64,000 nucleotides of DNA from NCBI GenBank assembly GCA_001443445.1, contig LDXN01000001.1:49290-113289 (forward strand). Reading direction: 5' to 3'. Shown here one piece after another: positions 27,076-45,993 of the stretch (the stretch's first letter is position 1; the number at the start of each line of letters is the position of its first letter). The notes under the pieces were generated by a model, which saw nothing but the letters and a program-made list of their open reading frames with translations, was not told the DNA's origin and did no database searches. The stretch is from Candidatus Dadabacteria bacterium CSP1-2. Lineage in GTDB: Bacteria; Desulfobacterota_D; UBA1144; Nemesobacterales; CSP1-2. The position numbers and the translations under genes are program-made.

Positions 27076-27272
27076 AGCAGATATTCTCCAAGAGCAATTC
27101 CCATTAATTCCTATACGATGGCTGGAATCATAAAGGGTACTGGACTCAGCATCGAGGAATTTAAAAAAGCTTTTATGATGGTGGGAGAGAAAATCTAGCA
27201 AAGCAGATTTGTTTTTCTTTCAAATCCATGTATATTCAATTTCCTAAAAATATATAAGAGAGGAATTACGTC

Positions 27273-28532: not shown

Positions 28533-28684
28533 ACGATTTATATCATTTCCAGGCCATTTCATATTGGCATCTTTCCCTACATAATGTATGGCTTTTAATA
28601 CGAAGACAACCCTTGTTATTCATGATATAGAGCTTTGAATATCTCCGCTACACCCTGAATATATTTTCATGCCCTGTATAAGAC

Positions 28685-28713
28685 TTGACACATTGAAGTT
28701 GTAGATTATGCTA
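28685..28713 (+). promoter_or_regulatory. candidate sigma-70 promoter for mdh (TTGACA-16/17-TATGCT)
   Basis: A TTGACA hexamer at 28685-28690 with a -10-like TATGCT 16 nt downstream, about 50 nt before the mdh start. Confidence 0.35.
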
Positions 28714-28759
28714 ATCATAGATTTCTATTCGGAGTGAAAATCAAGCATAGGAGTGAGCA

Positions 28760-29701
28760 ATGAGCAGACCAAAAATCTCAGTAATCGGTGCGGGAAACGT
28801 AGGTGCTTCTGCTGCCTTAAAATTAGCGGAACTCGAGCTTGGAGATGTTGTTCTTGTAGACATTGTAGAAGGCATGCCTCAAGGAAAGGCGCTTGATTTA
28901 ATGCAGATGCGTCCTGTATCCGGGCGCGACGTTAATATTATCGGGACAAATGGTTATGACGAGACAGAAGGGTCAGATATTGTAATAGTAACGTCAGGCA
29001 TTCCCCGTAAACCAGGAATGAGCCGTGATGATCTTCTTTCAACCAATACTAAGATTGTAAAACAGGTTACTGCAGAAGTGGCAAAAAAATCTCCAAACTC
29101 AATCTTAATTCTCGTTACAAACCCACTTGATGCAATGGTATACGTAGCATATAAGGTGAGCGAATTCCCAAAGCAAAGAATAATGGGAATGGCTGGAGTT
29201 TTGGATTCGGCTAGGTTTAGGACCTTTATCGCAATGGAGCTTGGTGTGTCCGTAGAAAATATACATGCGTTTGTTCTTGGAGGACACGGAGACGATATGG
29301 TTCCACTTGCAAGGTGTACTACGGTTGCAGGTGTTCCGATTACGGAGCTTATGTCTAAGGATAGGGTTGATGCTTTAATTCAGAGAACCCGCGATGGTGG
29401 CGCTGAAATTGTTAAACTCTTAAAGACGGGAAGTGCATTTTATGCACCTGCTGCTTCAACTGTAGAGATGGTAGAGGCGATACTTAAGGATAAAAAGAAA
29501 ATCCTCCCTTGTTGTGTTCTCGCAGAAGGTGAATATGGAATTAACGATACTTTTGTTGGTCTTCCTGTTAAGCTTGGAAGAAGTGGGATTGAAGAAATCT
29601 TGGAGATAAAGCTCACGCCCGAAGAACGTGAAGCGCTTCACCTTTCGGCAAGCCACGTTAGAGAGCTTTGTAACAGGGTGCATGAACTGGGGGAGCTTTA
29701 A
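28760..29701 (+). CDS. mdh: malate dehydrogenase (LDH-like family)
   Basis: 313 aa: '[13 protein letters not shown]', '[16 protein letters not shown]', 'LGGHGD'. Confidence 0.9.
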
Positions 29702-29853
29702 GGAATTTGGTTGGTAAAACAAGGTTATCTAGTTAAATGACTTTACAGAGAAGTACAATTCAGTTAATAAATCTTGCTCCATTTATAATCTAAGAATTAT
29801 AAACATAACTAAAAAATGATTATTGGTTCTCATCAAGGTGGTTCACATAAAGA

Positions 29854-31620
29854 ATGGGTAATTACGAAACTTATAAATATGATGTTGTTGTAGTCGGTGG
29901 AGGTGGTGCCGGGCTAAGGGCCGCCATTGCGGTTGCGGAGACAAATCCAGCCCTAAAGGTAGCTCTAGTGAGTAAGGTTTACCCGATGCGCAGTCACACG
30001 GTATCGGCTGAGGGAGGAGCCGCCGCAGTAATTAAGGAAAACGACAGCTTCGACGAGCACTGCTCGGACACAATTCTGGGAAGCGACTGGCTTGCCGATC
30101 AGGATGCTGTCGAGTTGTTTGTCAAAGAAGCGCCCAGTGAGATGATTCAACTTGAACACTGGGGTTGTCCATGGAGCCGTGAGCCAAACGGCAAGGTAGC
30201 CGTACGTCCCTTTGGCGGAATGAAAATCGAGCGCACCTGGTTTGCCGCTGATAAGACAGGCTTTCACATGCTTCATACGCTCTATCAGACCTCCCTTAAG
30301 TACGATAACGTCACCCATTTCGACGAGTGGTTTGCGACCAAGGTCCTCGTCGAAAATGGACGCTGTCAGGGGATCACTGCCCTAGAATTGCGCTCTGGTC
30401 AAATACGAGTTATTGCCGGTAAGGCCGTTATTATCTGTACAGGAGGTGCAGGACGCGTTTTCCCATTCACGACAAATGGGGCGATTAAGACCGGAGATGG
30501 AATGGTCATGGCCTATCGGGCTGGGGTAGCTCTCAAAGACATGGAGTTTGTCCAATACCATCCAACTGGTCTTCCCGGAACAGGAATCCTCATTACCGAG
30601 GCAGCTCGCGGAGAAGGGGGCATCTTAGTCAACAAGGATGGTTACCGCTATCTGCAAGACTACGATTTGGGTAAGCCGCTTGAGGTTACAGATTCCCGCC
30701 ATCCAGTTAAGAAGACAATGGAACTCGGCCCCCGTGATCGCTTAAGCCTAGCCTTCATGAAGGAGGTAGAGAAGGGGCGCACGCTATCAGGGGCATATGG
30801 TGAGTACGTTCACCTCGATCTCAGGCATCTCGGTGAAAAAAAGGTTGATAAGAAGATACCGTTTGTGCGGGAGCTCTCAACAAAGTATGCGGGGATTGAC
30901 CCTGTCTACGAGCCTATTCCCGTTCGGCCAGTCGTCCACTATATGATGGGCGGCGTTGACACTGATATAGACGGGGCAGCTTCGATGCCGGGTCTCTTTG
31001 CTGCAGGAGAGGCAGCTTGTGTCTCGATCAACGGAGCAAATCGGCTTGGCTCCAATTCGCTGACTGAGCTTTTGGTCTTCGGGGCAATAGCTGGACGGGC
31101 AGCAGCAAGGTTTGCAACTGAACATCCCGAACTTGATCTCACTGCTCTCCAGAAACAGGGAGCCGACGAACAGGAGAGGATCGCAAAGAATTTTATTCGT
31201 AAGGATGGAGGCTATGAACGCGTAGCCACTCTTCGGCAGGAGATGACGAGAACCATGGAGTCTGGTGCCGGTATTTACCGCTCTGAGACAAGCCTAAAAG
31301 AAACTTGTAATAAGCTGGCTGAACTCAGGGGTCGTTTTTCTAATATCCTTATTGAAGACCGGAGCCTCAGCTTTAATACTGAACTCACCTCAGCCCTGGA
31401 GCTTGACCTCATGCTCGATGTTGCTCAGGCGATAGCGCATAGTGCTCTTGCCAGAACTGAGAGTCGCGGCTCGCATCAACGAACCGATTACCCGGATCGC
31501 AACGACGAAAAATTTCTCAAGCACTCGCTTGCCTTTCGCACTGATGGCGCGCCCCGGATCGAATACAAGGATGTTATCATTACACGCTGGCCCCCGGCTG
31601 AGCGTGTATATGGGAGGTAA
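29854..31620 (+). CDS. frdA: fumarate reductase/succinate dehydrogenase flavoprotein subunit
   Basis: 588 aa: FAD motif '[14 protein letters not shown]', 'SHTVSAEGG', and the 'HYMMGGV' / 'RTESRGSH' C-terminal motifs. It precedes frdB, frdC and frdD. Confidence 0.9.
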
Positions 31621-31635
31621 ATTCCAATCGAATAT

Positions 31636-31672
31636 GTAGAGACGCATTGCAATGCGTCTCTACGTTATTTTT
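31636..31672 (+). terminator. intrinsic-terminator-like hairpin between frdA and frdB
   Basis: A perfect 12-bp stem GTAGAGACGCAT-TGCA-ATGCGTCTCTAC followed by GTTATTTTTAA. Confidence 0.6.
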
Positions 31673-31686
31673 AATCGGAGCAGAAA

Positions 31687-32442
31687 ATGGAAAAGACGAT
31701 GAAATTGGAGATATTTAGGTATCGTCCGGACCAGGAGGATCAACCGAGGTTTCAAACGTACGAAGTTCCCTTTAGGGAGGACTGGGTAGTTCTTGATGCG
31801 ATCAACTATATCAAGGATGAAATTGACGGGACGCTTTCCTACCGTTGGTCCTGCCGTATGGGTGTGTGTGGGAGTTGTGGAATGATGGTAAACGGTATTC
31901 CGAAGCTCACGTGCGCCACTTTTCTTAAGGACTACTATCCGGACAAGATTCGGGTAGAGCCGCTCACAGGGTTTCCCGTACAGCGAGACCTTGTGATAGT
32001 TATGGATGACTTCATCCATAAACTCAGAGAGATAAAGCCGTGGATAATTCGGCGTGAGGGCGAGGAGAAGCCAATTGAGGGGGGGGAATACCTACAGACC
32101 CCAGCCGAACTCGAACAGTACAAGCAATACTCGATGTGCATAAATTGCATGCTTTGCTACGCAGCATGTCCTGTATATGCTCTTGACAACACGTTCGTTG
32201 GTCCGGCAGCCATTGCGCTCGCACAACGCTATAACATGGATTCCCGAGACCAGGGACGGGACCAGCGTCAGGAAATCATCGCGAGCCACGAAGGCATTTG
32301 GGAATGTACCTTCGTCGGCGAGTGCAGCGTAGTCTGTCCTAAGGCTGTAGACCCTGCGGGAGCTATCCAGAGATCAAAAGTATCGAGCACAATTGACTGG
32401 TATAAGGAAGTGCTAATACCATGGGGGGGAAAGAAGAGATGA
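31687..32442 (+). CDS. frdB: fumarate reductase/succinate dehydrogenase iron-sulfur subunit
   Basis: 251 aa: 2Fe-2S '[15 protein letters not shown]', 4Fe-4S '[12 protein letters not shown]', 3Fe-4S '[12 protein letters not shown]'. Confidence 0.9.
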
Positions 32443-32822
32443 AACCTTATCGCCGACCTGTTCCAAACACGTGGTGGCTTGAGCGGCGCTCCTACTTCCT
32501 TTTTATAGTCCGTGAGCTGGCGTCGGTCTTTGTGGCGGCGTATAGTGTCTTTTTGTTGCTGGTCATCTACAAGCTTGGCCAAGGACCTGAGGCTTATGAA
32601 GGGATGATTGAACTTCTCAGGTCGCCTGCCCTTATAGTTTTTCACTTAGTCGTCCTTGCGTTCGCAGTTTATCACAGCATTACCTGGTTCAACCTTACTC
32701 CGAAGATCCTTGTTCTGTTTGTTGGAGAAGTGCGAGTCCCGCCACTCCTTATCGCCGGAGCTCATTACTTCGCTTGGCTGGTTCTTTCGGCCCTAGTGGC
32801 CTGGGTCATATTGAGGGCATAA
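32439..32822 (+). CDS. frdC: fumarate reductase membrane anchor subunit C (E. coli FrdC-like, heme-less type)
   Basis: '[31 protein letters not shown]' aligns closely to E. coli FrdC '[31 protein letters not shown]'. ATGA overlap with frdB. Confidence 0.85.
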
Positions 32823-32824
32823 CT

Positions 32825-33175
32825 ATGAGCAAATCAAACGAACCAATCTGGTGGTCTTTGTTTGCGGCGGGAGGTGTTGTTTCTGCGTTCTTCGTCCCAA
32901 TTCTGATAATTATAATAGGTATCGTCTTACCATTTGGCTTAGTAGGAGACGAACCATTTGTCTACGAGCGGATACACGGTGCCGTTTCTCATCCGGTGAC
33001 AAAGCTTCTTCTTTTCTTTCTTATTGTGCTTACTTTCTTTATCTGGGCTCATCGCTTTCGCTACACGCTTGTTCACATGGGGCTGCACAAGGCACGGTCT
33101 GTCATCTCAGTCTTTTGCTATGGCAGTGCTATAGTCGGCACAATCCTCACAGCTATCATACTCTGGCAGATTTAA
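32825..33175 (+). CDS. frdD: fumarate reductase membrane anchor subunit D (FrdD-like)
   Basis: 'MSKSNEPIWWSLFAAGGVVSAFFVPILIIIIGIVLPFGL' aligns to E. coli FrdD '[37 protein letters not shown]'. The longer ORF from 32774 overlaps frdC. Confidence 0.85.
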   Translation: MSKSNEPIWWSLFAAGGVVSAFFVPILIIIIGIVLPFGLVGDEPFVYERIHGAVSHPVTKLLLFFLIVLTFFIWAHRFRYTLVHMGLHKARSVISVFCYGSAIVGTILTAIILWQI

Positions 33176-33333
33176 AAAAACCCGTAAGTATTTAGCCACG
33201 AATTATCACTAATAAGCGGATTTTGGATTATGGAACATAGCGATTTCGGGTTTTGAATTGGAGAGTAAAACATTAGCTACAGAGATCACGAAGAACACAG
33301 AGAAAAGATTAAAAAATGAATTTTAGTTCGTAG

Positions 33334-33370
33334 GGGCGAACGGCCGTTCGCCCTAAAGGTTTGTTTTTTC
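33334..33370 (+). terminator. terminator hairpin GGGCGAACGGCCGTTCGCCC + T-run after frd operon
   Basis: A perfect 20-bp palindrome followed by TAAAGGTTTGTTTTTTCC. A related hairpin 'GGGCGAACCTTGCGTTCGCCC' occurs at 38044-38064. Confidence 0.6.
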
Positions 33371-33426
33371 CCCTTTCTGTGTCCTCTGTGGCTAAACAGT
33401 TATCTTAATTAGGAGGAAGAACAACT

Positions 33427-34590
33427 GTGAATATCCATGAATACCAGGCGAAAGAGTTGCTGGCAAAGTATGTCCCAGCAGGAAAGGTCGCTTTTACACC
33501 TGAAGAAGCTTATCAGATAGCTCAGGATCTAAGATGTACAAAACTCGTTGTGAAGGCACAGATTCATGCGGGTGGAAGAGGCAAGGGAGGAGGAATAAAG
33601 CTTGCCAATAGCCCTGATGAGGTAAGACGAATCGCTTCGGAGATGCTCGGTATGCGTCTTGTCACTCATCAAACAGGTGCGGAAGGAAAGATTGTTAGAA
33701 AGGTACTCATAGAAGAGGCCTCGGATATTGAAAGAGAGCTTTATCTAGGAGTTGTGATTGATAGGTCTACAGAAAGAATCGTTTTAATGGCAAGTCCTGA
33801 GGGTGGTGTTGAAATTGAAGAAATTGCTAGGACAAAACCAAAAAAAATCCTTAAGGAATATGTCGATCCTGCCTTAGGGCTTTTACCCTTTCAGTGTAGA
33901 AAGATTGCATACTTCTTGGGGCTTAATGGAAAAACCGCAAATAAGGCAGTGAATCTTATTTCAGGTCTATATCAAGCATTCGTAGATAATGACTGCTCAC
34001 TTGCAGAGATAAATCCACTTGTTGTTACACGTGAAGGTGATGTTCTCGCTCTTGATGTCAAGTTGAACTTTGACGATAATGCACTTTTTCGTCACCCTGA
34101 GATCGAAAAGCTCCGTGACCCAGAGGAGGAAGACCCGACGGAACTCGAGGCAAAGAAGTGGGGTCTTAGCTATGTGAAGCTAAATGGAAATATTGGATGC
34201 CTTGTAAATGGTGCTGGTCTTGCAATGGCGACGATGGATATTATTAAGTATTACGGAAGCGAACCCGCAAACTTTTTAGATGTTGGAGGTGGAGCTAGCA
34301 CTGAGCAGGTTACCCAAGCCTTTAAGATGATTCTTCGCGATCAAAATGTGAAAGCTGTGTTTGTGAATATTTTCGGCGGCATCATGAAGTGTGACACTAT
34401 TGCTACAGGAATTATAACAGCGGCTAAAGAGGTTGGGATAAAAGTACCAATTGTTGTAAGGCTTGAGGGCACTAACGTAGAGCTAGGAAGAAAGATGCTT
34501 GCTGAGTCTGGTTTAAATATTACAACAGGAGCCGATATGCGTGAGGCTGCTGCAAAGGCTGTCGCTGCGGCGGGGGGGAAGTTATCTTAG
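33427..34590 (+). CDS. sucC: succinyl-CoA synthetase (ADP-forming) beta subunit; GTG start
   Basis: '[15 protein letters not shown]' (E. coli 'MNLHEYQAKQLFARY') and the ATP-grasp domain. RBS AGGAGGA. No sucD gene follows. Confidence 0.9.
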
Positions 34591-34966: not shown

Positions 34967-35136
34967 TGGTATTTATTAGCTAATTAAATTTTTCAAAAAA
35001 CGTTAGGTTTCCATTTGTGGAAGATTTTATTATCTCGTTTAACATCCCTAAAACACATAAATTATTATTAAATAAACCTTGACATTACCCCTTTGATGAT
35101 TAGCTTTAGGTAATGGAGGTTAACCACGTGAGGGAA

Positions 35137-36009
35137 CTTGCAATTCGTGATCCTTTAAAATTGTTTCTTGGAGAAATTGAGAAATATCCGGTACTTAGCC
35201 GAGAAGAGGAATATGAGCTTGCTCTTAAGCATTATGAAGAAGGAGACCTTGAGGCGGCGAGGCAACTCGTTGTTTCAAATCTTAGATTTGTTGTAAAAAT
35301 AGCCTCTCAATATACATCTTATGGGTTTCCACTACTTGACTTAATACAAGAGGGCACAATCGGCTTAATGAGGGCTATTATGAAATTCAACCCTTACAGG
35401 GGTTATAGGCTAATATCCTATGCCGTTTGGTGGATTAAGGCGAGGATTCAAAGCTATATTATGAAATCATGGAGTCTTGTAAAAATTGGAACAACCCAGG
35501 CACAGAGAAAGCTTTTTCAAAGCATTGGAAAGGCAAAGAGGGAGCTTAGCATTTCACATGATGAATTGACAAATGAAGATTTAAAAAATATCGCCGATTT
35601 TTTTGATGTAAGAGAAAAGGACGTTCTTGGTATGGAGATGAGGATGGCAGGCAGGGATTTTTCCCTTAACATGGCATCAAGCGATGATGAGAGTATTACA
35701 TACCTTGATTCTATACCTGACTCTAGAGAAAACCAGGAAGATATAATTAACTCGGTTGAAACGAACGAAATGATAGAGGAAAGCATGCAGGACGGTTTTA
35801 ACAAACTTTCTCAAAAAGAGCGATACATTGTTGAGAAGAGGTATCTTGCTAATCCACCACTTAAGCTCAAGGATCTTGGTAGCGAGCTTGGAATTTCTAA
35901 AGAAAGGGTGCGACAGATAGAATCTCAAGCACTAAAAAAGCTTCGTATGGTTGTAGAAAATCGCTTGAACCATGGTTATTCTATTGAAAAGTCTGAAACA
36001 CAAATCTAG
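35137..36009 (+). CDS. rpoH: RNA polymerase sigma-32 factor (heat-shock sigma); alternative ATG start at 35113
   Basis: Sigma-70 regions 2 and 4, plus the RpoH box '[10 protein letters not shown]' (consensus Q(R/K)(K/R)LFFNLR). GTG at 35137 is preceded by GGAGG. It sits directly upstream of dnaK. Confidence 0.8.
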
Positions 36010-36020
36010 GAGGAGATTAT

Positions 36021-37946
36021 ATGGCAAGTAAGAAGATAATAGGAATTGACCTCGGCACTACGAATTCAGTTGTTGCAATAGTAGAGGGCGGTGAACCAAA
36101 GGTTCTTATAAACGAGGAGGGTTCAAGGCTTACGCCTTCGGTTGTCGGTTTTACTAAAGATGGTGAGATTCTTGTTGGAGGACCGGCAAAGAGACAAGCT
36201 GTAGTAAACCCAGAAAATACGATTTATTCAATTAAAAGGCTTATGGGAAGGCGTTATGAAGAGGCGACTGATGAAGCGAAGCGTCTTCCTTATAAAGTAG
36301 TGAAGGCCTCCGTTGGCGATGCATGGGTTGAGGCAATGGGAAAGCAGTATTCTCCTCCTCAGCTCTCAGCATACGTGCTGATGAAACTAAAGAAGGCTGC
36401 CGAGACTTACTTGGGAGAGGAAGTATCGGAAGCAGTAATAACTGTTCCTGCTTATTTCAATGATAGCCAGAGACAGGCTACAAAAGATGCGGGAAAGATC
36501 GCAGGCTTGAATGTTAGGAGAATCATCAATGAGCCGACAGCAGCAGCGCTTGCATATGGATTTGATAAGAGAAAGGAAGGGACTATTGTGGTTTATGACC
36601 TTGGTGGTGGTACATTTGATATCTCTATCTTAGAGGTTGGTGACAATGTAATCGAGGTAAAATCAACAAATGGCAACACCCACTTGGGTGGGGATGATTT
36701 TGATAGGCGTGTTATGGATTATCTAATCAGTGAGTTCAAGAAGGAAACTGGAATTGATTTAGGTCGAGATAAAATAGCGCTCCAAAGGCTTCGCGAGGCT
36801 TCAGAGAAGGCGAAGTGTGAGCTTTCGTCAACGCTAGAAACAGAGATTAATCTTCCTTTCATCACTGCAGATGCGGCTGGCCCGCGACATTTAATTATGA
36901 AACTCACTCGATCAAAGCTTGAGCAGCTCATAGAAGACCTAATAATCGGCACGCTTGATCCCTGTCGTCAAGCCCTTAAGGATGCAGGTTTAAAGTCGAG
37001 TGACATAAACGAGATTATTCTTGTTGGAGGATCTATTAGAACCCCGTACGTTCAGAAGGTTGTAAGCGACTTCTTTGGGAAGGAGCCGCATAAGGGGATA
37101 AATCCCGATGAGGTAGTTGCTGTAGGGGCTGCGATTCAGGGCGCTGTACTTGGCGGGGAGGTAAGGGATGTTCTTCTGCTTGATGTAACGCCGCTTTCAC
37201 TGGGGATCGAGACCCTTGGCGGTGTTATGACATCAATAATCGGAAGAAATACCACTATTCCTACAAAAAAGAGTCAGATATTTACCACCGCTGACGATAG
37301 TCAGACATCCGTTGAGATTCATGTGCTCCAAGGTGAGCGTCCTATGGCTCGTGATAACAGGACTCTTGCTAGATTTATTCTTGATGGAATTCCACCCGCA
37401 CCAAGAGGAATACCACAAGTAGAGGTTGGGTTTGATATTGATGCTGATGGCATACTTCATGTAGGCGCTAAGGATCTTGCTACACAGAAGGAGCAGAAAA
37501 TGAGGGTAGAGGCATCAAGCGGGTTAAGCAAGGAGCAGGTTGAGAAGATGGTAAAGGAAGCAGAGGAGCAGGCTGAAGAGGATAAGAAGCGTCGCGAGTT
37601 TGTTGAAAATAGAAATAGACTCGACGACTTGATTTATAGAACAGATAAGAGCTTTAAAGAGCTTAAGGATAAGCTCTCTGAGGGTGATAGAAAGGAGCTA
37701 GAGGATGCACTTGAAGAGGGTAGGAAGGTTCTTAAAAGTGAGGATATAAACGAGATCCAAACGGCGATGGAGAGAATTACCAAGGCGTCCCATAAGATAG
37801 CAGAGGTTGCCTACAAACAGGCTTCAGGAACGGGGGCAGGAGCAGGAACCGGAACATACGGAGCTGGCGAGGGAACTGAGGGAGGCGAAGCAGGAAAGAA
37901 AAAGGGCGGCGATGACGTTATAGATGCTGAGTTTACTGAAAAGTAG
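36021..37946 (+). CDS. dnaK: molecular chaperone DnaK (Hsp70)
   Basis: 641 aa: '[10 protein letters not shown]', 'DLGGGTFD', '[15 protein letters not shown]', and a C-terminal GGAP-rich tail. Confidence 0.95.
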
Positions 37947-38337
37947 ATAGTATATTAAAAGCTGTTGTTTGTCACAAGGTAGCTATTGTAACCCCAATTC
38001 TATATTAAAACGCAGAACAAAATTTAGAGTCAATTTGTATTGGGCGAACCTTGCGTTCGCCCAATACGGGCAACCGCGAGGGCATTTGTTACAACATAAC
38101 ATAAGGGATCAAAGGCAATTAACGTGGCACCCCAATGTCAATTTGCAAGGATAGGCAGGACTTTCTAGTCCTTCATTGGCAGACGGGGTTAGAAAACCCC
38201 GCCTGCCCGATGTCCTTCTGTCCCAGACTTTGCTTAGTCAGCGCCGCTAGGGTTACCCCCCAATGTTTATCGCCGGATTAGATATGCAAAGATCATACGC
38301 TTTCCTCTACATGAATTTAAGACCTGAAGGGTAGACG

Positions 38338-38420
38338 AAACCTTGAGGCTTCCATTGAGTCGCGGCATGGCCTGTCCTGAGCGTGGTCGAAGGGACGCTC
38401 CCAACCTGTCATACCCGAAT
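38338..38420. repeat. MITE family B-related repeat inside 694-bp noncoding region
   Basis: 'CGCGGCATGGCCTGTCCTGAGCGTGGTCGAAGGGACGCTCC'. It sits next to other hairpins: 38044-38064, 38180-38207, 38417-38441 and 38537-38560. Confidence 0.55.
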
Positions 38421-38640
38421 GAAGTTATCGGGTATCTATACTTTTTTGGATTCCCAATAAAGACGTTTGGGAATGACAAAGCAAAATGGGTATCGAAGGG
38501 ATGGTGTTCCTACCTGTCGCGGCACATTTTTTAGGTAAAGACGCAAAATTTTGCGTCTTTACTAGGAATTTCCGTTTTTCTGAATTCTTGCTTCTTTCTC
38601 GTTTCGATGTAAAATTAGATATTTAAACAGGAGGTCTTTA

Positions 38641-38879: not shown

Positions 38880-39000
38880 AAGATTCGTGAATCGTGATTT
38901 GGTGCTCGTGGTTTGTCCGACTGAGCCGTTTGTCCGGAGGCTTCGTCGTGAGCTCAGCCGAACGGCTCAAGACGAAGTCGAATCACGAAACCCGTACCAC
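38880..39000. repeat. REP-like 'CACGAA/TTCGTG' element with nested hairpins (family F)
   Basis: 'TTCGTGAATCGTGATTTGGTGCTCGTGGTTTG...CGAATCACGAAACCCGTACCAC' with an inner 'GAGCCGTT/AACGGCTC' stem. Confidence 0.55.
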
Positions 39001-39098
39001 TATTCACAAACCATGCACTATTCAATAAGTAATAACAGAGCTTTACAAATAAGCTATCATCGCCATATAATATAGAAAAATCATGGAGGTCACCTCAT

Positions 39099-41180
39099 AT
39101 GAAAGAGTATCCCCGTAGAAATGTAAGAAACGTAGCGATAATAGCTCATCATGGTGCTGGAAAAACCTCGCTTGCCGAAGCGATGCTTTTTCTCAGCGGG
39201 GCCACTCAGAAGCTCGGAAAGGTGGACGATGGCTCTTCCATTTTAGATTACGAATTAGAGGAACAAAACAGGAGGATGTCAATCAATTCGCATGTAGCGT
39301 TTTATGAGTGGAACGATCATTTTGTGAACCTAGTAGACACTCCGGGATTTGCCAACTTTTTGTTTGAGGCTGAAAGCGCACTCAGGGTTGTAGACGGCGC
39401 AATAGTGATTGTAAGTGCTATCACTGGAGTAAAAGCACAGACGCAAAAATTCTGGCAGGTAGCGGCGGATTTAGGTATCCCTAGGGTGCTTTTTATGAAC
39501 AAGTTGGATAGAGAGAGGGCAAGTTTTGAAAACGGTATTGCTGATATAGAAAAGGATTTAGGGATTCGGCCCGTACCTATTACGATTCCCATTGGAGAAG
39601 AAGAGAATTTTAAAGGTGTTGTAGATGTAATAGAAATGAAGGCACATATCTATGGAGAAGGTGGGAAATACTCTAACGAAAGCATCCCAAAGGATTTAGA
39701 GAGTCAGGCAAATGTATGGAGAGAAAGATTGGTTGAGTCCGTTGCTGAGATTAATGATGAATTGCTCGAAAAGTATCTAGGGGGGGAAACCTTTGATAAC
39801 GCATTAATTTACAAGATGCTAAGGGAAGGAGTACTAAACGCAAAAATAACTCCTGTTTATGTTGGCTCTGCTGTAAAGCTAATAGGAGTCAATCTGCTTA
39901 TGGATGGGGTTTGCCGTAACCTTCCATCTCCAATAGAGAGACCATCAATTAAGGCACAGAATATAAAAGGCGAAGAGGTAGAGAAAGAACCAAAGCTCGA
40001 AGAATCAATGTCTGCTTATGTGTTTAAAACTATATCTGATCCTTATGCAGGAAAGATAAGTATTATGAGGATATTTTCTGGCTCGATGAAAGCCGATTCA
40101 ACCATTTTCAACACTGGAAAAAAGTCGCGTGAGAAGATAGGTCAGTTATTCAGAATAAGTGGGAAAAAGCAATTTCCAGTTAGTCCCGCTCTATTTGGCG
40201 ACATTGTTACTGTTAATAAACTTAAGGATACTGAGACTGGGGATACCCTTTCCGATGAAGCTAATCCAATAATTATTCCTCATCAAGGCATGCCTCAAGC
40301 TGTTATATCATATGCGATTCAACCTAAGACTAGGGCGGATGAAGACAAGCTCATGTCATCACTAAGCAGAATCCGTGAGGAAGACCCAACAGTTCTATCT
40401 AGAAGGGATGAGGAAACAAAAGAGTTTCTTCTTTCTGGAACAGGACAGGTTCATGTAGAGATTACTGTAGATAAACTCAAGAATAAGTACGGCGTAAACG
40501 TGGAGATGAAAACACCCAAGGTACCATACAAGGAAACAATAAAGATGATGGCAAAGGCTGAGGGAAAATATATAAAGCAGACAGGTGGTAGAGGGCAATA
40601 TGGAGATGCTTGGCTTCAGGTTGAACCTCTTCAACGAAGCGGAGGATATGAGTTTGTTGATAGGATAGTAGGAGGTGTGATACCAAAGAACTTTATCCCT
40701 TCAGTAGAGAAGGGCGTTAAAGAGGCTATGCATAAGGGTATTCTTGCGGGTTATCCAGTAGTAGATGTTAAGGTAACGCTCTTTGATGGAAAATATCACC
40801 CTGTGGATTCTTCAGACATAGCGTTTAAGATTGCCGGCTCCATGGGCTTTAAGAAGGCGATGGAGATGGCTCAACCTGTAATTCTTGAACCTATAATGCG
40901 CGTCGAATCCATCACACCTGAAGACTGCTTAGGGGATGTGATAGGTGATATAAATGCAAGAAGAGGGAAAGTATCAGGGGTAGAGCCTCAAGCGGGGGGC
41001 CATGTCGTAAAGGCCTTGGTTCCCATGGCTGAGATTCTTACTTATGCACCTGAGCTAAGATCCATTACAAGCGGACGTGGTATGTTTTCCATGGAGTTTT
41101 CTCATTATGAAGAGGTTCCTAGTCACCTTGCTTCAAAGATTATCGAGGCAGTCTCAAAAGAAAAGGTGGCTGAAGAATGA
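39099..41180 (+). CDS. elongation factor G paralog (EF-G II-like) with non-canonical G motifs
   Basis: 693 aa with all five EF-G domains. G1 is 'AHHGAGKTS' (canonical AHIDAGKTT), switch II is 'DTPGFANF' (canonical DTPGHVDF, the catalytic His replaced by Phe), and G4 'NKLD' is intact. Confidence 0.8.
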   Translation: MKEYPRRNVRNVAIIAHHGAGKTSLAEAMLFLSGATQKLGKVDDGSSILDYELEEQNRRMSINSHVAFYEWNDHFVNLVDTPGFANFLFEAESALRVVDGAIVIVSAITGVKAQTQKFWQVAADLGIPRVLFMNKLDRERASFENGIADIEKDLGIRPVPITIPIGEEENFKGVVDVIEMKAHIYGEGGKYSNESIPKDLESQANVWRERLVESVAEINDELLEKYLGGETFDNALIYKMLREGVLNAKITPVYVGSAVKLIGVNLLMDGVCRNLPSPIERPSIKAQNIKGEEVEKEPKLEESMSAYVFKTISDPYAGKISIMRIFSGSMKADSTIFNTGKKSREKIGQLFRISGKKQFPVSPALFGDIVTVNKLKDTETGDTLSDEANPIIIPHQGMPQAVISYAIQPKTRADEDKLMSSLSRIREEDPTVLSRRDEETKEFLLSGTGQVHVEITVDKLKNKYGVNVEMKTPKVPYKETIKMMAKAEGKYIKQTGGRGQYGDAWLQVEPLQRSGGYEFVDRIVGGVIPKNFIPSVEKGVKEAMHKGILAGYPVVDVKVTLFDGKYHPVDSSDIAFKIAGSMGFKKAMEMAQPVILEPIMRVESITPEDCLGDVIGDINARRGKVSGVEPQAGGHVVKALVPMAEILTYAPELRSITSGRGMFSMEFSHYEEVPSHLASKIIEAVSKEKVAEE

Positions 41181-41293: not shown

Positions 41294-41809
41294 ATGATAA
41301 AACCCTATAATGGGATTTTTCCTAAGATACATTCAAGTGCATTTATTGCAGATAGCGCCGAGGTGATAGGAGACGTTACAATAGGCGAGGAATCTAGCGT
41401 ATGGTTTCAGACCGTCATCAGAGGAGATGTGAACTTTATCAAGATTGGAGCTAGAACAAACATTCAAGACAATAGCGTCTTGCATGTCACACATAATACC
41501 CATCCGGTTATAATCGGAAATGATGTTACAGCCGGTCACAGAGTTGTAATACATGGATGCACTATAAGTGATTGTGTTCTTATCGGGATAGGCGCAATTG
41601 TTCTTGATGGGGCAATCGTGGAAGAGAATTCAATAGTTGGTGCCGGAAGCTTGGTTGCACCGGGCTTTAAAGTTCCATCTGGAACCGTTGTAATGGGTGT
41701 TCCGGCAAAGGTAAGAAGGAAGCTAAGTCCTGAAGAGGTGATGCAAATAAAGCAGTCAGCAGCGAATTATATAGAATATTCAAAAAAACATAAGTTGGTT
41801 GGCGGTTAG
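41294..41809 (+). CDS. gamma-class carbonic anhydrase family protein (YrdA/PaaY-like, left-handed beta-helix)
   Basis: 171 aa with hexapeptide repeats: 'VWFQTVIRGDVNFIKIGARTNIQDNSVLH', 'IHGCTISDCVLIGIGAIVLDGAIV'. Confidence 0.8.
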   Translation: MIKPYNGIFPKIHSSAFIADSAEVIGDVTIGEESSVWFQTVIRGDVNFIKIGARTNIQDNSVLHVTHNTHPVIIGNDVTAGHRVVIHGCTISDCVLIGIGAIVLDGAIVEENSIVGAGSLVAPGFKVPSGTVVMGVPAKVRRKLSPEEVMQIKQSAANYIEYSKKHKLVGG

Positions 41810-41946
41810 TAATACTATACTTCAAGAACGTTATTATAGATGAAAGAAGATTACGGTGGGTGAGGTTTATGTCATATTTATGGTCGTTTATCCAATTTAT
41901 TTGCTGTTAATCCCGCTCGTGTAAAATCGATGCCTATTATTTTCCG

Positions 41947-42867
41947 ATGCGTATAGCCTCAATAGATATAGGTACAAATACATTTAGGATACTAGTTTGT
42001 GAGCTCAAAGATAAAGAGATAAAAAAGCTTTATATTGAGCGTGTAATCACAAGGCTCGGGGGTGGATTCGCTAAAGAGGGGAAAATAACCGAAGATGCAG
42101 CCAGAAGATCGCTCAGGGCCCTAAAAAAATTTGCTAAGATTATCGAACGATACAAGGTAAAGAGGGTGAGGGCTGTAGCTACAAGTGTGGTTAGAGAGTC
42201 TCAAAATGGTAGTAAGTTCTTAGAACAAGTTAAAAAAGAAACCGGAATTAAGACAGAGATAATCTCAGGTGAGGAAGAGGCACAGCTTACTGTAAATGGT
42301 GTTTTAAGATCTGTTTCTGTTGATACAAAATACAGTGTGATTTTTGATGTTGGTGGAGGAAGCACTGAGTATGTATTTGTAAAAAAGGGTCAGGTTTTAG
42401 GTCTTACAAGTACGAATCTCGGAGTTGTACATCTTTCAGAAAGATATTTGAAGACAGGTGTCCCCTCTAGCTCAGATATTAAAAATCTTTCTAAAGAAAT
42501 AGAAACGGTCTTATCTTTCGAATTATCCTGGATACCAAGTGTTTCCCCTTCCAATCTAACTTTGATTGGAACTGCAGGAACACCAACAACACTCGCTGCG
42601 ATTCAACTTGGTTTAAAAAAATATGATCCGGGTTTGGTTAATGGATTTATTCTGAAACAGGATATGCTCACCAATATCTTCAAGTCATTAATTAGGATTC
42701 CTCCGCGAGATAGGCTTAAGATACCGGGACTGGAAAAGGGTAGGGAGGACGTGATTATACCAGGTGTGTTGATCGTACTTCAAACCATGGATAGATTTTC
42801 TAAAGATACTGTCTTGGTCAGCGATGGCGGCCTTCTTGAAGGAGTGGCTTATAGTTTAATTCCATAG
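41947..42867 (+). CDS. ppx: exopolyphosphatase / guanosine pentaphosphate phosphohydrolase family (Ppx/GppA)
   Basis: 306 aa: 'IASIDIGTNTFRILV', 'VRAVATSVVRES', 'FDVGGGSTE' ASKHA-fold motifs. Confidence 0.8.
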   Translation: MRIASIDIGTNTFRILVCELKDKEIKKLYIERVITRLGGGFAKEGKITEDAARRSLRALKKFAKIIERYKVKRVRAVATSVVRESQNGSKFLEQVKKETGIKTEIISGEEEAQLTVNGVLRSVSVDTKYSVIFDVGGGSTEYVFVKKGQVLGLTSTNLGVVHLSERYLKTGVPSSSDIKNLSKEIETVLSFELSWIPSVSPSNLTLIGTAGTPTTLAAIQLGLKKYDPGLVNGFILKQDMLTNIFKSLIRIPPRDRLKIPGLEKGREDVIIPGVLIVLQTMDRFSKDTVLVSDGGLLEGVAYSLIP

Positions 42868-42977
42868 ACTATTTGCCACAGAGGTCACAGAGAGTTTTTT
42901 AATACAAAAACATATCTTTTCTCTGCTTTCTCAGTGTTCTCTGTGGCAAAAGTAGTGGCTGGACTCGAAGCTATGCG

Positions 42978-43006
42978 TTGACAATTTATGCCATGATTAT
43001 TATATT
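42978..43006 (+). promoter_or_regulatory. sigma-70 type promoter for hrcA-grpE (TTGACA-17-TATATT)
   Basis: TTGACA at 42978-42983, a 17-nt spacer, then TATATT at 43001-43006. It ends 18 nt before the hrcA ATG. Confidence 0.5.
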
Positions 43007-43024
43007 TTTCTAAGACTAGTTGAC

Positions 43025-44056
43025 ATGAATAGAGAAGAGCTATCGGAAAGAGGAAAAAGAATACTTAATTTAATAGTTAATCATCATATAAAAACTGGTG
43101 AGCCTATAGGGTCGAACGCACTTGTTAAAAGTTATGAGCTTCCATGGAGTTCAGCTACTGTAAGAACAACCATGGCTGATCTTATGAATGAAGGTTATTT
43201 GTCTCAGCCACATGTGTCTGCAGGCAGAATCCCTAGCGAGAAGGGGTTCAGGTTTTATATTGATTCATTGTTATATCCCCAGATGCTTTCTGAGAAAAAA
43301 AGGGGGGTTATAAGAAGACGCTATGAGAGAATAGAAGGCACACTTGATGAAGTTATGCATGAAACTAGTAAAATGCTTTCGGATATTTCTCGGTGTGCTG
43401 GTTTGGTAATGCTGCCAAGAGCTAGGTTAATGAATATAAAATCCACTGAATTAATAAAACTGGGAGGTAAAAAGGTTCTTTTCATTATCGTATTTGAGGG
43501 TGGATTGACTGAGAAGACACTAATAAGGATGAATAGGGAAGCCCCTGATGACATGCTAAAGATGTTGTCCCGTTATCTTAATGAGCTTGCTATAGGACTT
43601 ACGCTGGATCAGCTAAGGGTAATAGTGCTCGATAGGCTAAAATCTGAAAAGCGGCTTTATCATGAATTGGTTCTGAATTTTCTTAGGTTTAGTAGGGAAA
43701 TATATGAACAAAAGATTCAAACCGATATTTATATAAAAGGACAGACTTCTATCCTTGAGAATTCGAAATGGACTCCGCCTGAGCGTCTCAGAAAACTCCT
43801 TAAGGCTTTTGAGGAAAAAAGTGTTCTTGTAGATATACTAGACAAAGCTATGAAAGGAGAAGGAACCAGGGTGTTTGTAGGTTCTGAAATCGGGATTATG
43901 GAGGGATACAGCCTGGTTACCGCTCCATACGGTGGGGGGAGGAAGCTTGGAACGCTTGGTGTATTGGGTCCAATTCGTATGGATTATTCTAAGATAATTC
44001 CACTTGTTGATTATACTGCTAGGGTTCTTAGTGAAATAATCGCCGGGGGAGAGTAA
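43025..44056 (+). CDS. hrcA: heat-inducible transcription repressor HrcA
   Basis: 343 aa: N-terminal wHTH 'LSERGKRILNLIVNHHIKTGEPIGSNAL', conserved C-terminus. Upstream of grpE. Confidence 0.85.
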   Translation: MNREELSERGKRILNLIVNHHIKTGEPIGSNALVKSYELPWSSATVRTTMADLMNEGYLSQPHVSAGRIPSEKGFRFYIDSLLYPQMLSEKKRGVIRRRYERIEGTLDEVMHETSKMLSDISRCAGLVMLPRARLMNIKSTELIKLGGKKVLFIIVFEGGLTEKTLIRMNREAPDDMLKMLSRYLNELAIGLTLDQLRVIVLDRLKSEKRLYHELVLNFLRFSREIYEQKIQTDIYIKGQTSILENSKWTPPERLRKLLKAFEEKSVLVDILDKAMKGEGTRVFVGSEIGIMEGYSLVTAPYGGGRKLGTLGVLGPIRMDYSKIIPLVDYTARVLSEIIAGGE

Positions 44057-44057
44057 A

Positions 44058-44759
44058 ATGGATAATGACAAAAAGAAGGATGAGACCAAAGAAAATCTTG
44101 ATGTTAAAGACAGGTCTAATAATGCCAGGAATGAAGAAGAGGATACATTAGAGGAGGAAGCACTGCCTTCAGGGATAAAAGCATTTCAAGATGAGCTTGA
44201 AACGAAGAAGAAGGAGTATGATGAACTTTATGATAAATACCTGAGGGCAGCGGCAGACTTTGATAATTATAAAAAGAGGGTAGCTAAAGAGAAGGCTGAC
44301 ATTATGAGCTATGGAAACGAGGATCTAATAAAAGAGCTTCTTCATGTGCTTGATAATTTAGAACGCGCAATAGAACACTCAGAAACTGCAAAAGAAGCTA
44401 GACCAATTATAGAAGGTATAAATCTTGTACACAAGCAGTTTCTTGGCTGTCTTGAGAAGTTTGGCGTAAAGCCTATAAATGCTTCTAAAGGCGATAAATT
44501 CGATCCGAATATCCATCAGGCTATAGAGTATGAGCAATCTAGCGACATGAAGCCAGATTTGATTATATCCGAGATGCTAAAGGGTTATACCCTAAGTGAT
44601 AGGCTTTTAAGACCTTCTCTTGTGGTAGTATCGAAGGAAATTGAATTGCCTTCGCCCAATCAAAAGACCTCAGTTGAAACAGGAAATGGCTATGAGATGG
44701 GCAATTCAGGTTCAGAAGAGATCTTAGACCTGATTGATGAAAACACTGATAAAAATTAA
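44058..44759 (+). CDS. grpE: nucleotide exchange factor GrpE
   Basis: 233 aa with a coiled-coil N-terminus and 'YLRAAADFDNYKKR'. Confidence 0.9.
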   Translation: MDNDKKKDETKENLDVKDRSNNARNEEEDTLEEEALPSGIKAFQDELETKKKEYDELYDKYLRAAADFDNYKKRVAKEKADIMSYGNEDLIKELLHVLDNLERAIEHSETAKEARPIIEGINLVHKQFLGCLEKFGVKPINASKGDKFDPNIHQAIEYEQSSDMKPDLIISEMLKGYTLSDRLLRPSLVVVSKEIELPSPNQKTSVETGNGYEMGNSGSEEILDLIDENTDKN

Positions 44760-44898
44760 TCATGAAGATAGTGCATGGACCGCATATAGATTGGCGTGCA
44801 AAGAACTAGATGAAGCCTATTAGAAGATCGTTCAGTTATCGAAAATTCGAGGTGGTAAAGAAGTCTTAAGACATGGCAATCAGTTTTAGGAGAAGTTA

Positions 44899-45993
44899 TT
44901 GATGGCTAAAAGAGATTATTACGATATCTTGGGGGTTAAACGGAACTCATCTCAGGAAGAGATAAAAAAGGCTTATAAGAAGCTTGCTTTTGAATACCAT
45001 CCTGATAGAAATCCAGGAAATCCTACGGCGGAAGAGAGGTTCAAGGATATTAACGAGGCATATCAGGTTCTAAGCAACCCTGATAAAAGAGCCCAATACG
45101 ATAGCTTTGGTCATATCTCGGGTGAAGGGTTCTTTTCAGATGTTGATTTCTCAAGGAATTTTAACGACCTTTTTGGAAACCTTTTTGATGAGGTTTTTAA
45201 TGTTGGTAGAAGGCGTCGTCCTGAAAGAGGCATGGATTTAAAATACAATCTTGAGCTTACATTCGAAGAAGCCGCTTTTGGTGTAGAGAAGGAAATAATT
45301 GTCCCGAAAAGGGTGATTTGCTCGGGATGTGGTGGAGGTGGAGCTGCACCTGGGGGGGAAGTAGTATGTGTGATGTGTGCTGGTAGAGGCGAGGTCAGGT
45401 ACTCAGAAGGGTTTTTTGCAATAAGTAGAACATGTTCAAGCTGCGGTGGTGCGGGAAGAGTAATTAAGATTTCTTGCCATCGTTGTAGAGGAGAAAGGCT
45501 TATTACATCTGAGCAAACAATTAAAGTAAAGGTTCCTCCTGGTGTCAGTGAAGGGGCAAGACTAAGAATTCGTGGAGAAGGTGAGGCGGGGTATCTAGGG
45601 GGTCCGAGTGGTGACCTCTATGTCGAAATATATGTAAAAGAACACCCATTTTTCAAGCGTGAGGGAAAGGATATCTTTTGTGAAGTTCCAGTAGGTTTTG
45701 TTCAAGCTGCTCTCGGCGCAGAGATAGAAATTCCAACACTAGAGGGGAAAACTACAATTAGAATCCCACCAGGGACACAGCCTGGACAATCCTTCAGACT
45801 TAAGGGTAAGGGTGTAGCCAGCCTTAATGGAAAAGGAAAGGGTGACCTTTATATAAGGGTACAAGTAGAGGTTCCAGTTAAACTGAATTTAAAACAGAAG
45901 CAGCTACTTGAGGAGTTTGCAAGATCGGGTGAAGGTGATGAGAATCCCACAGTCAAAAAGTTTTTTGAAAAATTCCGTGAGTTATTTGGATGA
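44899..45993 (+). CDS. dnaJ: molecular chaperone DnaJ
   Basis: J-domain 'DYYDILGV...HPDRN', a G/F region and four CxxCxGxG zinc-finger repeats. Confidence 0.9.

Follow-up and report, generated by a model that had tools for sequence, protein, structure and literature searches.

EF-G paralogs of the EFG II subfamily have been described from several bacteria, and those in which the catalytic switch-II His is replaced differ in how much GTPase activity they retain. T. thermophilus EF-G-2 (PDB 1WDT/2DY1) has Tyr at the His position (motif DAPGYGDF), and, by later citations of Connell (2007), it reportedly has intrinsic and ribosome-dependent GTPase as well as poly(Phe)/translocation activity in vitro. 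M. smegmatis EF-G2 (PDB 9K0Z/9K10), where the residue is Tyr98, has minimal GTPase activity and lacks ribosome-dependent GTPase, does not recycle ribosomes, binds nonratcheted 70S, and is described as stress specific; mycobacterial EF-G2 has been proposed to slow or protect ribosomes from the factor-binding site. In the H88Y mutant of mycobacterial EF-G1, GTPase is nearly abolished and ribosome-dependent GTPase is lacking. B. thetaiotaomicron EF-G2 (FusA2; PDB 7UVP/8DMF; Han et al. 2023) reportedly sustains translocation without GTP hydrolysis, and Bacteroides fusA2 goes up in starvation while fusA declines. In addition, EF-G H92A still supports multiple-turnover translocation, with slow release. 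The first-pass annotation of the gene studied here regarded the function of EFG II as unresolved; that view is partly outdated, since Bacteroides EF-G2 is a starvation-induced, hydrolysis-free translocase and mycobacterial EF-G2 is a stress-specific factor.

We analyzed a 64-kb stretch of the genome of Candidatus Dadabacteria bacterium CSP1-2 (the window, to which all positions refer; every feature given lies on the plus strand). An EFG II-type EF-G gene with an ATG start at 39099..41180 encodes a 693-aa protein with domains I to V, here called the CSP1-2 paralog. The presence of all five EF-G domains, as originally proposed, was confirmed by Pfam matches to GTP_EFTU, EF-G_D2/GTP_EFTU_D2, EFG_III, EFG_IV, and EFG_C, each above its cutoff. 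The AlphaFold model (pLDDT, 91.1) superimposed on ribosome-bound, active E. coli EF-G (7n2v) with a TM score of 0.96 at 1.8 Å. The paralog resembles canonical EF-G (EFG I, the fusA product of the str operon) in architecture, in its G' subdomain, in the tip of domain IV, and in sequence (45% identity to T. thermophilus EF-G), but it lacks the catalytic His, RGITI, the P-loop Ile-Asp pair, and the str operon context.

The three remodeled motifs read exactly as first claimed. In the G1 motif or P-loop, A16-HHGAGKT-S24 (39144..39170; translation and clade alignment), the hydrophobic-gate Ile is replaced by His18 and the P-loop Asp is replaced by Gly19. The P-loop Asp is implicated in cation-assisted catalysis by translational GTPases. 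Among 118 clade members, G19, G21, K22, and T23 were invariant or nearly so, His18 was found in 115, and Leu25 (39171-39173), an EFG II signature that follows the P-loop, was kept in 110. Switch I/G2, R58-RMSINS64 (39270..39290), located by alignment with T. thermophilus EF-G and by clade conservation, has Ser61 in place of the Mg-coordinating Thr and Met60 in place of the gate Ile, and the adjoining His65 was present in all 118 clade members. The G3/switch II motif is D80-TPGFANF87 (39336..39359; alignment and clade conservation), and a gapless alignment placed Phe84 opposite His87 of T. thermophilus EF-G, so the reported absence of the His holds. Full-length homologs sharing 56 to 98% identity read DTPGF in 117 of 118 cases and DTPGY in the other, with Asn86 in 117 and Phe87 in all 118. 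The sequencing error at the His codon that the first-pass annotation had allowed for is excluded, because four assemblies of independent origin (Logan SRR29904086, ENA ERZ28563878, ENA ERZ27254861, and JGI 3300025002) all carry the identical 693-aa protein, because Phe is found in 117/118 homologs, and because the Phe84 codon is TTT (39348-39350), two substitutions away from a His codon (CAT/CAC). The CSP1-2 paralog is a real, conserved second-type EF-G copy.

Outside these motifs the protein is close to canonical. The G4 motif N134-KLD137 (39498..39509), which confers guanine specificity, is intact (N in 118/118, K in 117/118, and D in 107/118), as is the G5 motif G256-S-A258 (39864..39872; clade alignment). 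In domain IV, loop 1 (Q494-TGGRGQYG502; 40578..40604), the tip that reaches the decoding center, is as in canonical EF-G and varies among clade members only by R/K at residue 498, and loop 2 (Y566-HPVDSSD573; 40794..40817; alignments) contains the conserved His567, with H567, V569, D570, S571, S572, and D573 all invariant in the clade.

[quoted passage not shown] 2011 (PMC3150367), of which the CSP1-2 paralog matched 5 of 6 and 5 of 7, respectively. At type I positions 25(28), 291(316), 333(360), and 352(379), EFG II has Leu, Thr, Gly, and Lys/Arg, and the paralog has L, T, G, and K, where canonical proteins have T, I/V, A, and G. The exception was position 16(19), at which Gly replaces Ala in 86% of EFG II (Margus et al. 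2011, PMC3150367) but the paralog keeps the EFG I-type Ala; a subset of 21 clade sequences had Ala in 14, Gly in 5, and Ser in 2. The EFG II type II residues are D216, V250, L264, K471, K472, E513, and G603 (Margus et al. 2011, PMC3150367); the paralog agreed in V, L, K472, E, and G and differed in having Asn at 216(224) and Ile at 471(498), and because of this Ile, loop 1 of domain IV lacks the extra positive charge. EFG II has lost the translational GTPase consensus RGITI in G2, which is relaxed to xxxSx with Ser for Thr at position 61, and the deltaproteobacterial pattern is RxxT/SI (Margus et al. 2011, PMC3150367), which R58-R-M-S61-I62 fits. The paralog has the core motifs AHHGAGKT, DTPG, NKLD, and GSA, which vary little or not at all among clade members. 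It resembles the deltaproteobacterial sub-subgroup of EFG II (Margus, Remm & Tenson 2011, PMC3150367) in its five domains, in G1, G3 (DxPG), G4, and G5, in RxxSI with Ser for Thr, in Leu after GKT[ST], in the domain II residues Thr/Gly/Lys, in its non-str location, and in falling on the side of T. thermophilus EF-G-2 in the tree.

That tree was built by neighbor joining (NJ) from 168 sequences with 60 bootstraps, the spdEFG, Tet, and EF-2 outgroups being left out. Canonical EF-G was split from all the rest, including the CSP1-2 paralog and T. thermophilus EF-G-2, with 100% support; the clade with Phe was monophyletic at 100%, and the grouping of canonical EF-G with the Phe clade received 0%. 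T. thermophilus EF-G-2 shares with the CSP1-2 paralog an aromatic residue for His, Gly for the P-loop Asp, and the overall fold (Foldseek E value, 8e-81; TM, 0.81), but it differs in having Tyr rather than Phe, Thr rather than Ser in switch I, and no P-loop His, and its identity to the paralog is 39%. The diagnostic positions and the tree together bear out the earlier placement in EFG II, and on this sequence-based evidence the CSP1-2 paralog is assigned to an EFG II lineage of Candidatus Dadabacteria and Desulfobacterota-related bacteria. Its closeness to canonical EF-G is unusual for EFG II: it passed the TIGR00484 EF-G model (750.6 versus a cutoff of 659.4), so automatic annotation says "elongation factor G," and it matched the "elongation factor G" subfamily model NF009381 (PRK12740.1-5) of NCBIfam end to end at 905.9 bits (cutoff, 583). 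The NCBIfam equivalog NF009377, "elongation factor G-like protein EF-G2," scored 624.4 bits, below its cutoff of 890, and the Bacteroides-type model NF058620 (EFG2_Bacteroid) scored 531 bits (cutoff, 1000), the best stretch covering residues 1-512 only.

Other identities were considered and rejected. Canonical EF-G (EFG I) does not fit F84, RRMSI, and AHHGAGKTS, which stand in place of DTPGHVDF, RGITI, and AHIDAGKTT, and no str genes are nearby. The hallmark of spdEFG1 is a three-residue "KDG" insertion in switch I (Margus et al. 2011, PMC3150367); it is absent, the alignment with T. thermophilus EF-G being gapless over residues 3-186. The tetracycline ribosomal protection model (NCBIfam tet_protect) reached 349.5 bits against a cutoff of 775, and the scores for RF3, BipA, and LepA were all far under their cutoffs.

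The loss of the His proved to be common. Among the 150 nearest cluster representatives, the switch-II residue was Tyr in 66, Phe in 29, and Asp in 13, with others making up the remainder, and the His was kept in only 3 of the 135 noncanonical representatives; about 98% of the noncanonical representatives in the sampled sequence neighborhood are thus without it, with Tyr and Phe dominating. Dictyoglomus and Gluconobacter were the named canonical-type representatives. In a scan of genome collections queried with peptides specific to the CSP1-2 paralog, which recovered His-less paralogs only, the His was kept in 0 of 77 genome loci. Loss of the His is thus the rule among EFG II-like proteins rather than a peculiarity of the CSP1-2 paralog, which for this reason is an ordinary EFG II member and does not represent a novel type of protein. 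Further members of the clade are carried by the assemblies JAHFBK01 (97% identity), JAKEHC01, and CAWDVW01 (a 727-kb contig) and by the chromosome OZ244044.1.

The gene occupies a fixed place in a chaperone cluster. Upstream are an rpoH-like sigma-32 gene (35113-36009; NF005143, 307.7 versus a cutoff of 241) and dnaK (36021-37946; its translation read by eye as typical DnaK/Hsp70), both syntenic in loci L005-L011, followed by the conserved neighbor rpmE, which encodes ribosomal protein L31 (38641..38853; Pfam PF01197, NCBIfam NF000612, and synteny). Downstream, at 41294..45993, are genes for a gamma-CA-like hexapeptide protein and a Ppx/GppA-family phosphatase and then hrcA, grpE, and dnaJ (Pfam, NCBIfam, and synteny), giving the conserved order rpoH-dnaK-rpmE-EFG II-gammaCA-ppx-hrcA-grpE-dnaJ. 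The Pfam and NCBIfam matches of the neighbors agree with the first-pass annotation, which had placed the gene between rpmE and a gamma-CA-like gene and outside the str operon: this region of the window and the 80 to 84 related loci all lacked matches to rpsL, rpsG, and tuf. The 64-kb window contains no canonical fusA; its other open reading frame of about 700 codons (4095-6206; 703 aa) was considered as a candidate and is that of PNPase.

A sigma-70-type promoter candidate, TTTACA-18 nt-TATAAT (39042..39071), matching the consensus at 11 of 12 positions, lies 28 nt before the ATG and is the best consensus match within 34.6-46.2 kb. CTTTACA and TATAAT were unchanged in 10 of 10 orthologous loci, whose proteins share 56-100% identity, although their flanks diverge. 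A Shine-Dalgarno sequence, GGAGG, follows at 39085..39089, and the alignment of orthologous loci shows a purine-rich GGAG-type element ahead of the start codon. Judged from sequence, the gene would in this lineage be transcribed as a unit by itself, from a conserved, near-consensus sigma-70-type promoter candidate. A three-mismatch match to a sigma-32 promoter overlaps this candidate and was rejected because its CCCCAT-like part varies among orthologous loci while TTTACA and TATAAT stay. The HrcA/CIRCE operator, TTAGCACTC-N9-GAGTGCTAA, had no match in the whole window with up to 3 mismatches allowed. The placement among chaperone genes hints at a role tied to proteostasis or stress without proving it; with no CIRCE operator and a sigma-32-like match that is not conserved, this link comes from gene neighborhood. 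Neither the spacer between rpmE and the EFG II gene nor the 690-nt one between dnaK and rpmE contained an Rfam family at the gathering threshold, and matches at an E value of ≤1 were at chance level only. An extended, imperfect hairpin (about 38886-39010) has a slightly more favorable fold than shuffled sequence (z, -2.7).

We favor, as the probable reading, an accessory EFG II paralog that binds GTP, performs little or no hydrolysis activated by the sarcin-ricin loop (SRL), and works either as a translocase that is slow and driven by binding or as a factor bound to the ribosome. The CSP1-2 paralog would keep binding GTP and the ribosomal A site as EF-G does, given the intact and conserved GxGKT, the Mg ligand Ser61, DTPG, NKLD, and GSA, and the unchanged domain IV tip. 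SRL-activated GTPase would probably be little or none, because the residues on which canonical hydrolysis depends have been replaced (Phe84, Gly19, His18, and Met60). The protein may then supplement canonical EF-G at a low GTP cost, in a mode resembling the hydrolysis-free translocation of Bacteroides EF-G2 or the translocation with slow release of EF-G H92A. Bacteroides EF-G2 serves as the functional model, both proteins being accessory EF-G paralogs, but it belongs to another EFG II subgroup, has 718 aa, and is regulated by Cur under carbon limitation, for which the CSP1-2 paralog has no counterpart.

The first-pass annotation predicted that on the ribosome the protein binds GTP but does not hydrolyze it. 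This is plausible but not certain: the inactive or nearly inactive M. smegmatis EF-G2 and EF-G1 H88Y agree with it, but absence of the His is no proof of absent hydrolysis, because T. thermophilus EF-G-2, with Tyr, reportedly hydrolyzes GTP. Moreover, extrapolation from distant EFG II members is weak because the CSP1-2 paralog is nearer to canonical EF-G (45% identity to T. thermophilus EF-G) than to characterized EFG II proteins (39% to EF-G-2), has Ala16, and passes TIGR00484. It is conceivable, although less probable than the accessory reading, that the protein is a competent ribosome-stimulated GTPase and alternative translocase whose site has been rewired, for example, with His18 or with a water placed by other residues. 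T. thermophilus EF-G-2 offers a precedent, since it reportedly hydrolyzes GTP and translocates without the His, and every nucleotide-binding motif of the CSP1-2 paralog is intact. Around the active site, His18 (115/118), His65 (118/118), Met60, and Asn86 are clade specific and almost invariant, a sign that a particular geometry of the catalytic site is under selection, and the conserved near-consensus promoter candidate may point to substantial expression. Set against this are the nearly dead EF-G1 H88Y, the inactivity of mycobacterial EF-G2 with Tyr98, and the replacement of the P-loop Asp by Gly19 as well.

An unlikely alternative is a ribosome-binding regulator that does not translocate but, in times of stress, occupies the place where translation factors bind and so slows or protects the ribosome. 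M. smegmatis EF-G2, with its minimal GTPase, its lack of recycling, its binding to nonratcheted 70S, and its stress specificity, would be the model, and like the CSP1-2 paralog it is EFG II type with the His replaced and with altered P-loop and switch I; the location of the CSP1-2 gene in a chaperone/heat shock cluster, near a Ppx/GppA-family gene, is also in keeping with such a role. However, both domain IV tip loops, including His567, are those of translocation-competent EF-G and do not vary within the clade, whereas a protein that simply blocks the site should be under less constraint. In M. smegmatis EF-G2, by contrast, G4 and G5 are altered and identity to E. coli EF-G is 31%, so the CSP1-2 paralog, in which G4, G5, and the tip of domain IV are intact, is far nearer to canonical EF-G (45%, T. 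thermophilus). Neither a CIRCE operator in the window nor a sigma-32 promoter at the gene supplied a stress-specific element.

Less likely again is relocation, rather than loss, of the catalytic His in the Phe subclade, such that P-loop His18 together with Met60, His65, and Asn86 would form a rewired GTPase site independent of the SRL-engaged His. His18 occupies the hydrophobic-gate position (Ile21 in T. thermophilus EF-G and the equivalent of Ras Gly12) beside the gamma-phosphate; catalysis by a relocated His18, if true, would be a mechanism new to translational GTPases. That the gene encodes the only or primary EF-G of the organism is very improbable: no canonical fusA lies within the window, the TIGR00484 cutoff is passed, and the promoter candidate and Shine-Dalgarno sequence are strong, but in the survey by Margus et al. 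2011 (PMC3150367) single-EF-G genomes all had EFG I, with EFG II always an extra copy beside EFG I (or spdEFG), str operon context is found in none of the 80 to 84 related loci, and the signature residues of EFG II speak for a paralog. An artefact, whether a misread His codon or a gene decaying into a pseudogene, can be dismissed given the identical protein in four assemblies, the TTT codon two changes from His, Phe in 117/118 homologs, the strong purifying constraint under which the motifs and domains III to V have evolved, the intact reading frame, and the confidently predicted fold.

For annotation, the finding serves mainly as a correction and would not surprise a specialist: EF-G-like genes without the catalytic His are not anomalies but belong to a large conserved class, EFG II, that pipelines label "elongation factor G." The new details are modest, namely, the placement in the rpoH-dnaK…hrcA-grpE-dnaJ cluster, the conserved sigma-70-type promoter candidate, and the clade-specific His18. 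The fixed position of the EFG II gene in the chaperone cluster gives a testable physiological hypothesis. Finally, the Dadabacteria/Desulfobacterota subclade represents a near-canonical EFG II whose G4, G5, and domain IV tip are intact but whose catalytic center is fully remodeled, and this combination of a near-canonical body with Phe84, His18, Gly19, and Met60 makes it a clean natural test of the need for GTP hydrolysis in translocation, a question now under reexamination.

The gene (39099-41180, plus strand) starts at an ATG preceded by GGAGG (39085-39089, plus strand) and encodes a 693-residue EF-G paralog in which the Pfam domains GTP_EFTU, EF-G_D2/GTP_EFTU_D2, EFG_III, EFG_IV, and EFG_C all scored above threshold. 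[quoted passage not shown] This residue is genuine. Its codon, TTT (39348-39350, plus strand), is two substitutions away from either His codon; four independent assemblies (Logan, two from ENA, and JGI) encode the identical 693-residue protein with the same neighboring genes; and among 118 full-length homologs with identities as low as 56% (the Phe clade), switch II reads DTPGF in 117 and DTPGY in the other. Sequencing error at the His codon was thereby ruled out. The source organism is a Candidatus Dadabacteria bacterium, and over 87% of its length the query matches a database protein from RBG_19FT_COMBO_40_33 at 100% identity.

Judged on similarity scores alone, the protein resembles canonical EF-G (EFG I): it matched T. 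thermophilus EF-G with 660 bits (about 45% identity) and EF-G-2 with 482 bits, and it passed even the TIGR00484 EF-G cut-off. The NCBIfam model that fitted best, by contrast, was NF009381 (905.9 bits; cut-off, 583), one of the NCBI models numbered under PRK12740. Assignment to the divergent EFG II subfamily, as originally proposed, was tested against the definition of Margus, Remm, and Tenson (2011; PMC3150367) and was upheld by both the diagnostic positions and a neighbor-joining tree. At type I positions, the EFG II residue is present at five of six (Leu25, Ser61, Thr, Gly, and Lys), Ala16 being the only one at which the EFG I residue is kept, and five of seven type II positions agree with EFG II. 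In switch I, RGITI has become RRMSI, with Ser in place of the Mg-binding Thr, which fits the RxxT/SI pattern of delta-proteobacterial EFG II (PMC3150367). The tree comprised the protein together with 21 members of its clade, a further 137 nearest cluster representatives, 7 representatives of canonical type, T. thermophilus EF-G, and EF-G-2, a bona fide EFG II protein whose sequence was verified. Canonical EF-G was split from everything else, including the window protein and EF-G-2, with 100% bootstrap support; the Phe clade was monophyletic, also at 100%, and never grouped with canonical EF-G in this tree. Deeper branching within EFG II was poorly supported, as it was for Margus et al. (PMC3150367). 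With regard to other families, the protein lacks the switch I KDG insertion by which spdEFG1 is defined, and the Tet-type, RF3, BipA, and LepA models fell far under their cut-offs.

The switch II residue was followed through the 150 clusters nearest to the protein, obtained by searching 1.84 billion cluster representatives exhaustively with HMMER; 144 of these clusters had a readable G3 motif. Nine were canonical (AHIDAGKTT, RGITI, DTPGHVDF). Only 3 of the 135 noncanonical representatives kept His, the others having Tyr (66), Phe (29), Asp (13), or assorted small or polar residues. Likewise, His was found at none of the 81 readable loci in a set of 80 from GTDB species genomes and 4 contigs with the identical protein. 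Among 77 GTDB-genome loci, 22 were Tyr type (Desulfuromonadales and some Nitrospirota) and 20 Ser type and 19 Ala type (both Nitrospirales); Phe-type loci totaled 17, including the 4 identical-protein contigs. T. thermophilus EF-G-2 reads DAPGYGDF, and Mycobacterium smegmatis EF-G2 has Tyr98 where His88 would be (bioRxiv 10.64898/2026.05.25.727771). Loss of the switch II His is the rule in this group. The eye-catching change to Phe is thus present as first described, but as an EFG II family trait rather than an exception. In nine Nitrospirales loci (L058, L061, L067, L074, L076, L078, L081, L082, and L084), a second translational-GTPase-like gene lies on the minus strand about 10 to 11 kb downstream of the Ser-type match; at 30 to 35% identity to the query and 26 to 28% to EF-Tu, it is probably another such GTPase (e.g., BipA, LepA, or RF3).

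Across the Phe clade (n = 118), the nucleotide-binding residues (G19, G21, K22, and T23; D80-T-P-G83; N134-K-L-D137; G256-S-A258) are invariant or nearly so, and this strong constraint makes it almost certain that binding of GTP or GDP is retained. The catalytic center has been remodeled through a set of changes that is fixed in, and specific to, the clade: Phe84 stands in for the catalytic His and Gly19 for the P-loop Asp, the hydrophobic-gate isoleucines have become His18 (115/118) and Met60 (118/118), and His65 and Asn86 are likewise fixed. We consider it fairly unlikely that the protein is still an active GTPase. On that side, papers citing Connell (2007) report intrinsic and ribosome-dependent GTPase and translocation activity for T. 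thermophilus EF-G-2, which also lacks both the switch II His and the P-loop Asp, and this counts against a simple equation of His loss with loss of hydrolysis. EF-G H92A still supports multiturnover translocation with slow release, and a Bacteroides paralog has been described that translocates without GTP hydrolysis (PMC12775393). The latter, FusA2, is induced >200-fold upon carbon limitation while fusA falls (PMC6989115). A regulator with no role in translocation is improbable. Domains III to V are the most conserved parts in the clade, and the domain IV tip loops, QTGGRGQYG and YHPVDSSD (with its conserved His), match canonical EF-G and are invariant. A confident AlphaFold model (pLDDT, 91.1; pTM, 0.81) superposed best on 7n2v (TM, 0.96; 1.8 Å), the active GTP form of E. 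coli EF-G on a translocating ribosome, showing compatibility with EF-G-like ribosome binding, which is not proof of function. Our best estimate is that the protein would serve as a GTP-binding, hydrolysis-poor, translocation-capable accessory factor. That it is the sole EF-G of the organism is very improbable, even with no canonical fusA within the 64-kb window and only His-less paralogs among the matches to query-specific peptides in the GTDB species genomes, and would be unprecedented, because genomes with one EF-G gene always have EFG I (Margus et al.; PMC3150367).

The local gene order is rpoH-like sigma factor, dnaK, 690-nt spacer, rpmE, EFG II, gamma-CA-like hexapeptide protein, Ppx/GppA-family phosphatase, hrcA, grpE, dnaJ. 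This order is kept in related MAGs (loci L005 to L011; 68 to 97% protein identity), although no gamma-CA-like gene was detected in L010 or L011, and the dnaK-rpmE-EFG-hexapeptide core persists at 56% identity (L013 and L021); none of these neighbors was found beside the more distant Tyr-, Ser-, and Ala-type relatives. Of the promoter-like sequences in the region, TTTACA-18-TATAAT (39042-39071, plus strand), 28 nt upstream of the ATG, is the best match. All 10 orthologous loci retain its CTTTACA and TATAAT boxes unchanged while the spacer around them diverges, and this phylogenetic footprint indicates an independent sigma-70-type transcription unit. Because no CIRCE element is present and a weak sigma-32-like match that coincides with this promoter is unconserved, the association with the chaperone genes is positional only.

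Several other features were observed. At 35113-37946, the rpoH-like sigma-32 gene stops 11 nt ahead of dnaK, an arrangement kept in L005 to L011 that suggests a single operon. The unusually long dnaK-rpmE spacer (37947-38640) holds only short ORFs of 61 to 70 residues, two perfect palindromic hairpins (38037-38067 and 38535-38562), and no Rfam family at threshold; since the L005 spacer is only about 250 nt, part of it may be an insertion. Just upstream of the conserved promoter, a long imperfect hairpin (38886-39010) lies in the 245-nt rpmE-EFG spacer, which as a whole folds at -60.9 kcal/mol (z = -2.7 versus shuffles); the hairpin might act as a terminator or insulator for rpmE, or it might be a repeat element. 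In the "Deltaproteobacteria bacterium SAW255" MAG (L009, 5917-10001), an insertion of about 4 kb separates rpmE from the EFG II gene, with the conserved promoter still directly upstream of the latter. Paralogs of this group occur in MAGs labeled Ignavibacteriales, Spirochaetia, and Betaproteobacteria (L006, L007, L014, and L030), two of which (L006 and L007) also carry the complete rpoH-dnaK-rpmE-EFG order, a pattern that suggests misbinned contigs or mislabeled records rather than true phylogenetic spread. Elsewhere in the window, TCA-cycle genes are dense at 24340-34590 and 59678-60967 (aconitase, isocitrate dehydrogenase, succinate dehydrogenase/fumarate reductase flavoprotein and Fe-S subunits, and succinyl-CoA synthetase beta, with citrate synthase farther along), and GC content reaches 0.51 locally at 30 to 32 kb, over the flavoprotein gene. 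An ORF at 56170-57507 (minus strand) combines DinB_2 and FGE-sulfatase domains, a pairing characteristic of EgtB-like sulfoxide synthases from ergothioneine/ovothiol-type pathways.

Overall, the observation behind the first-pass annotation was confirmed and its interpretation was largely right, but the His loss that it flagged is a known EFG II trait. What is new is modest: a Phe-type subclade that stays near canonical EF-G, a clade-specific P-loop His, a stable place within a cluster of chaperone genes, and a conserved promoter that the EFG II gene would have as its own.
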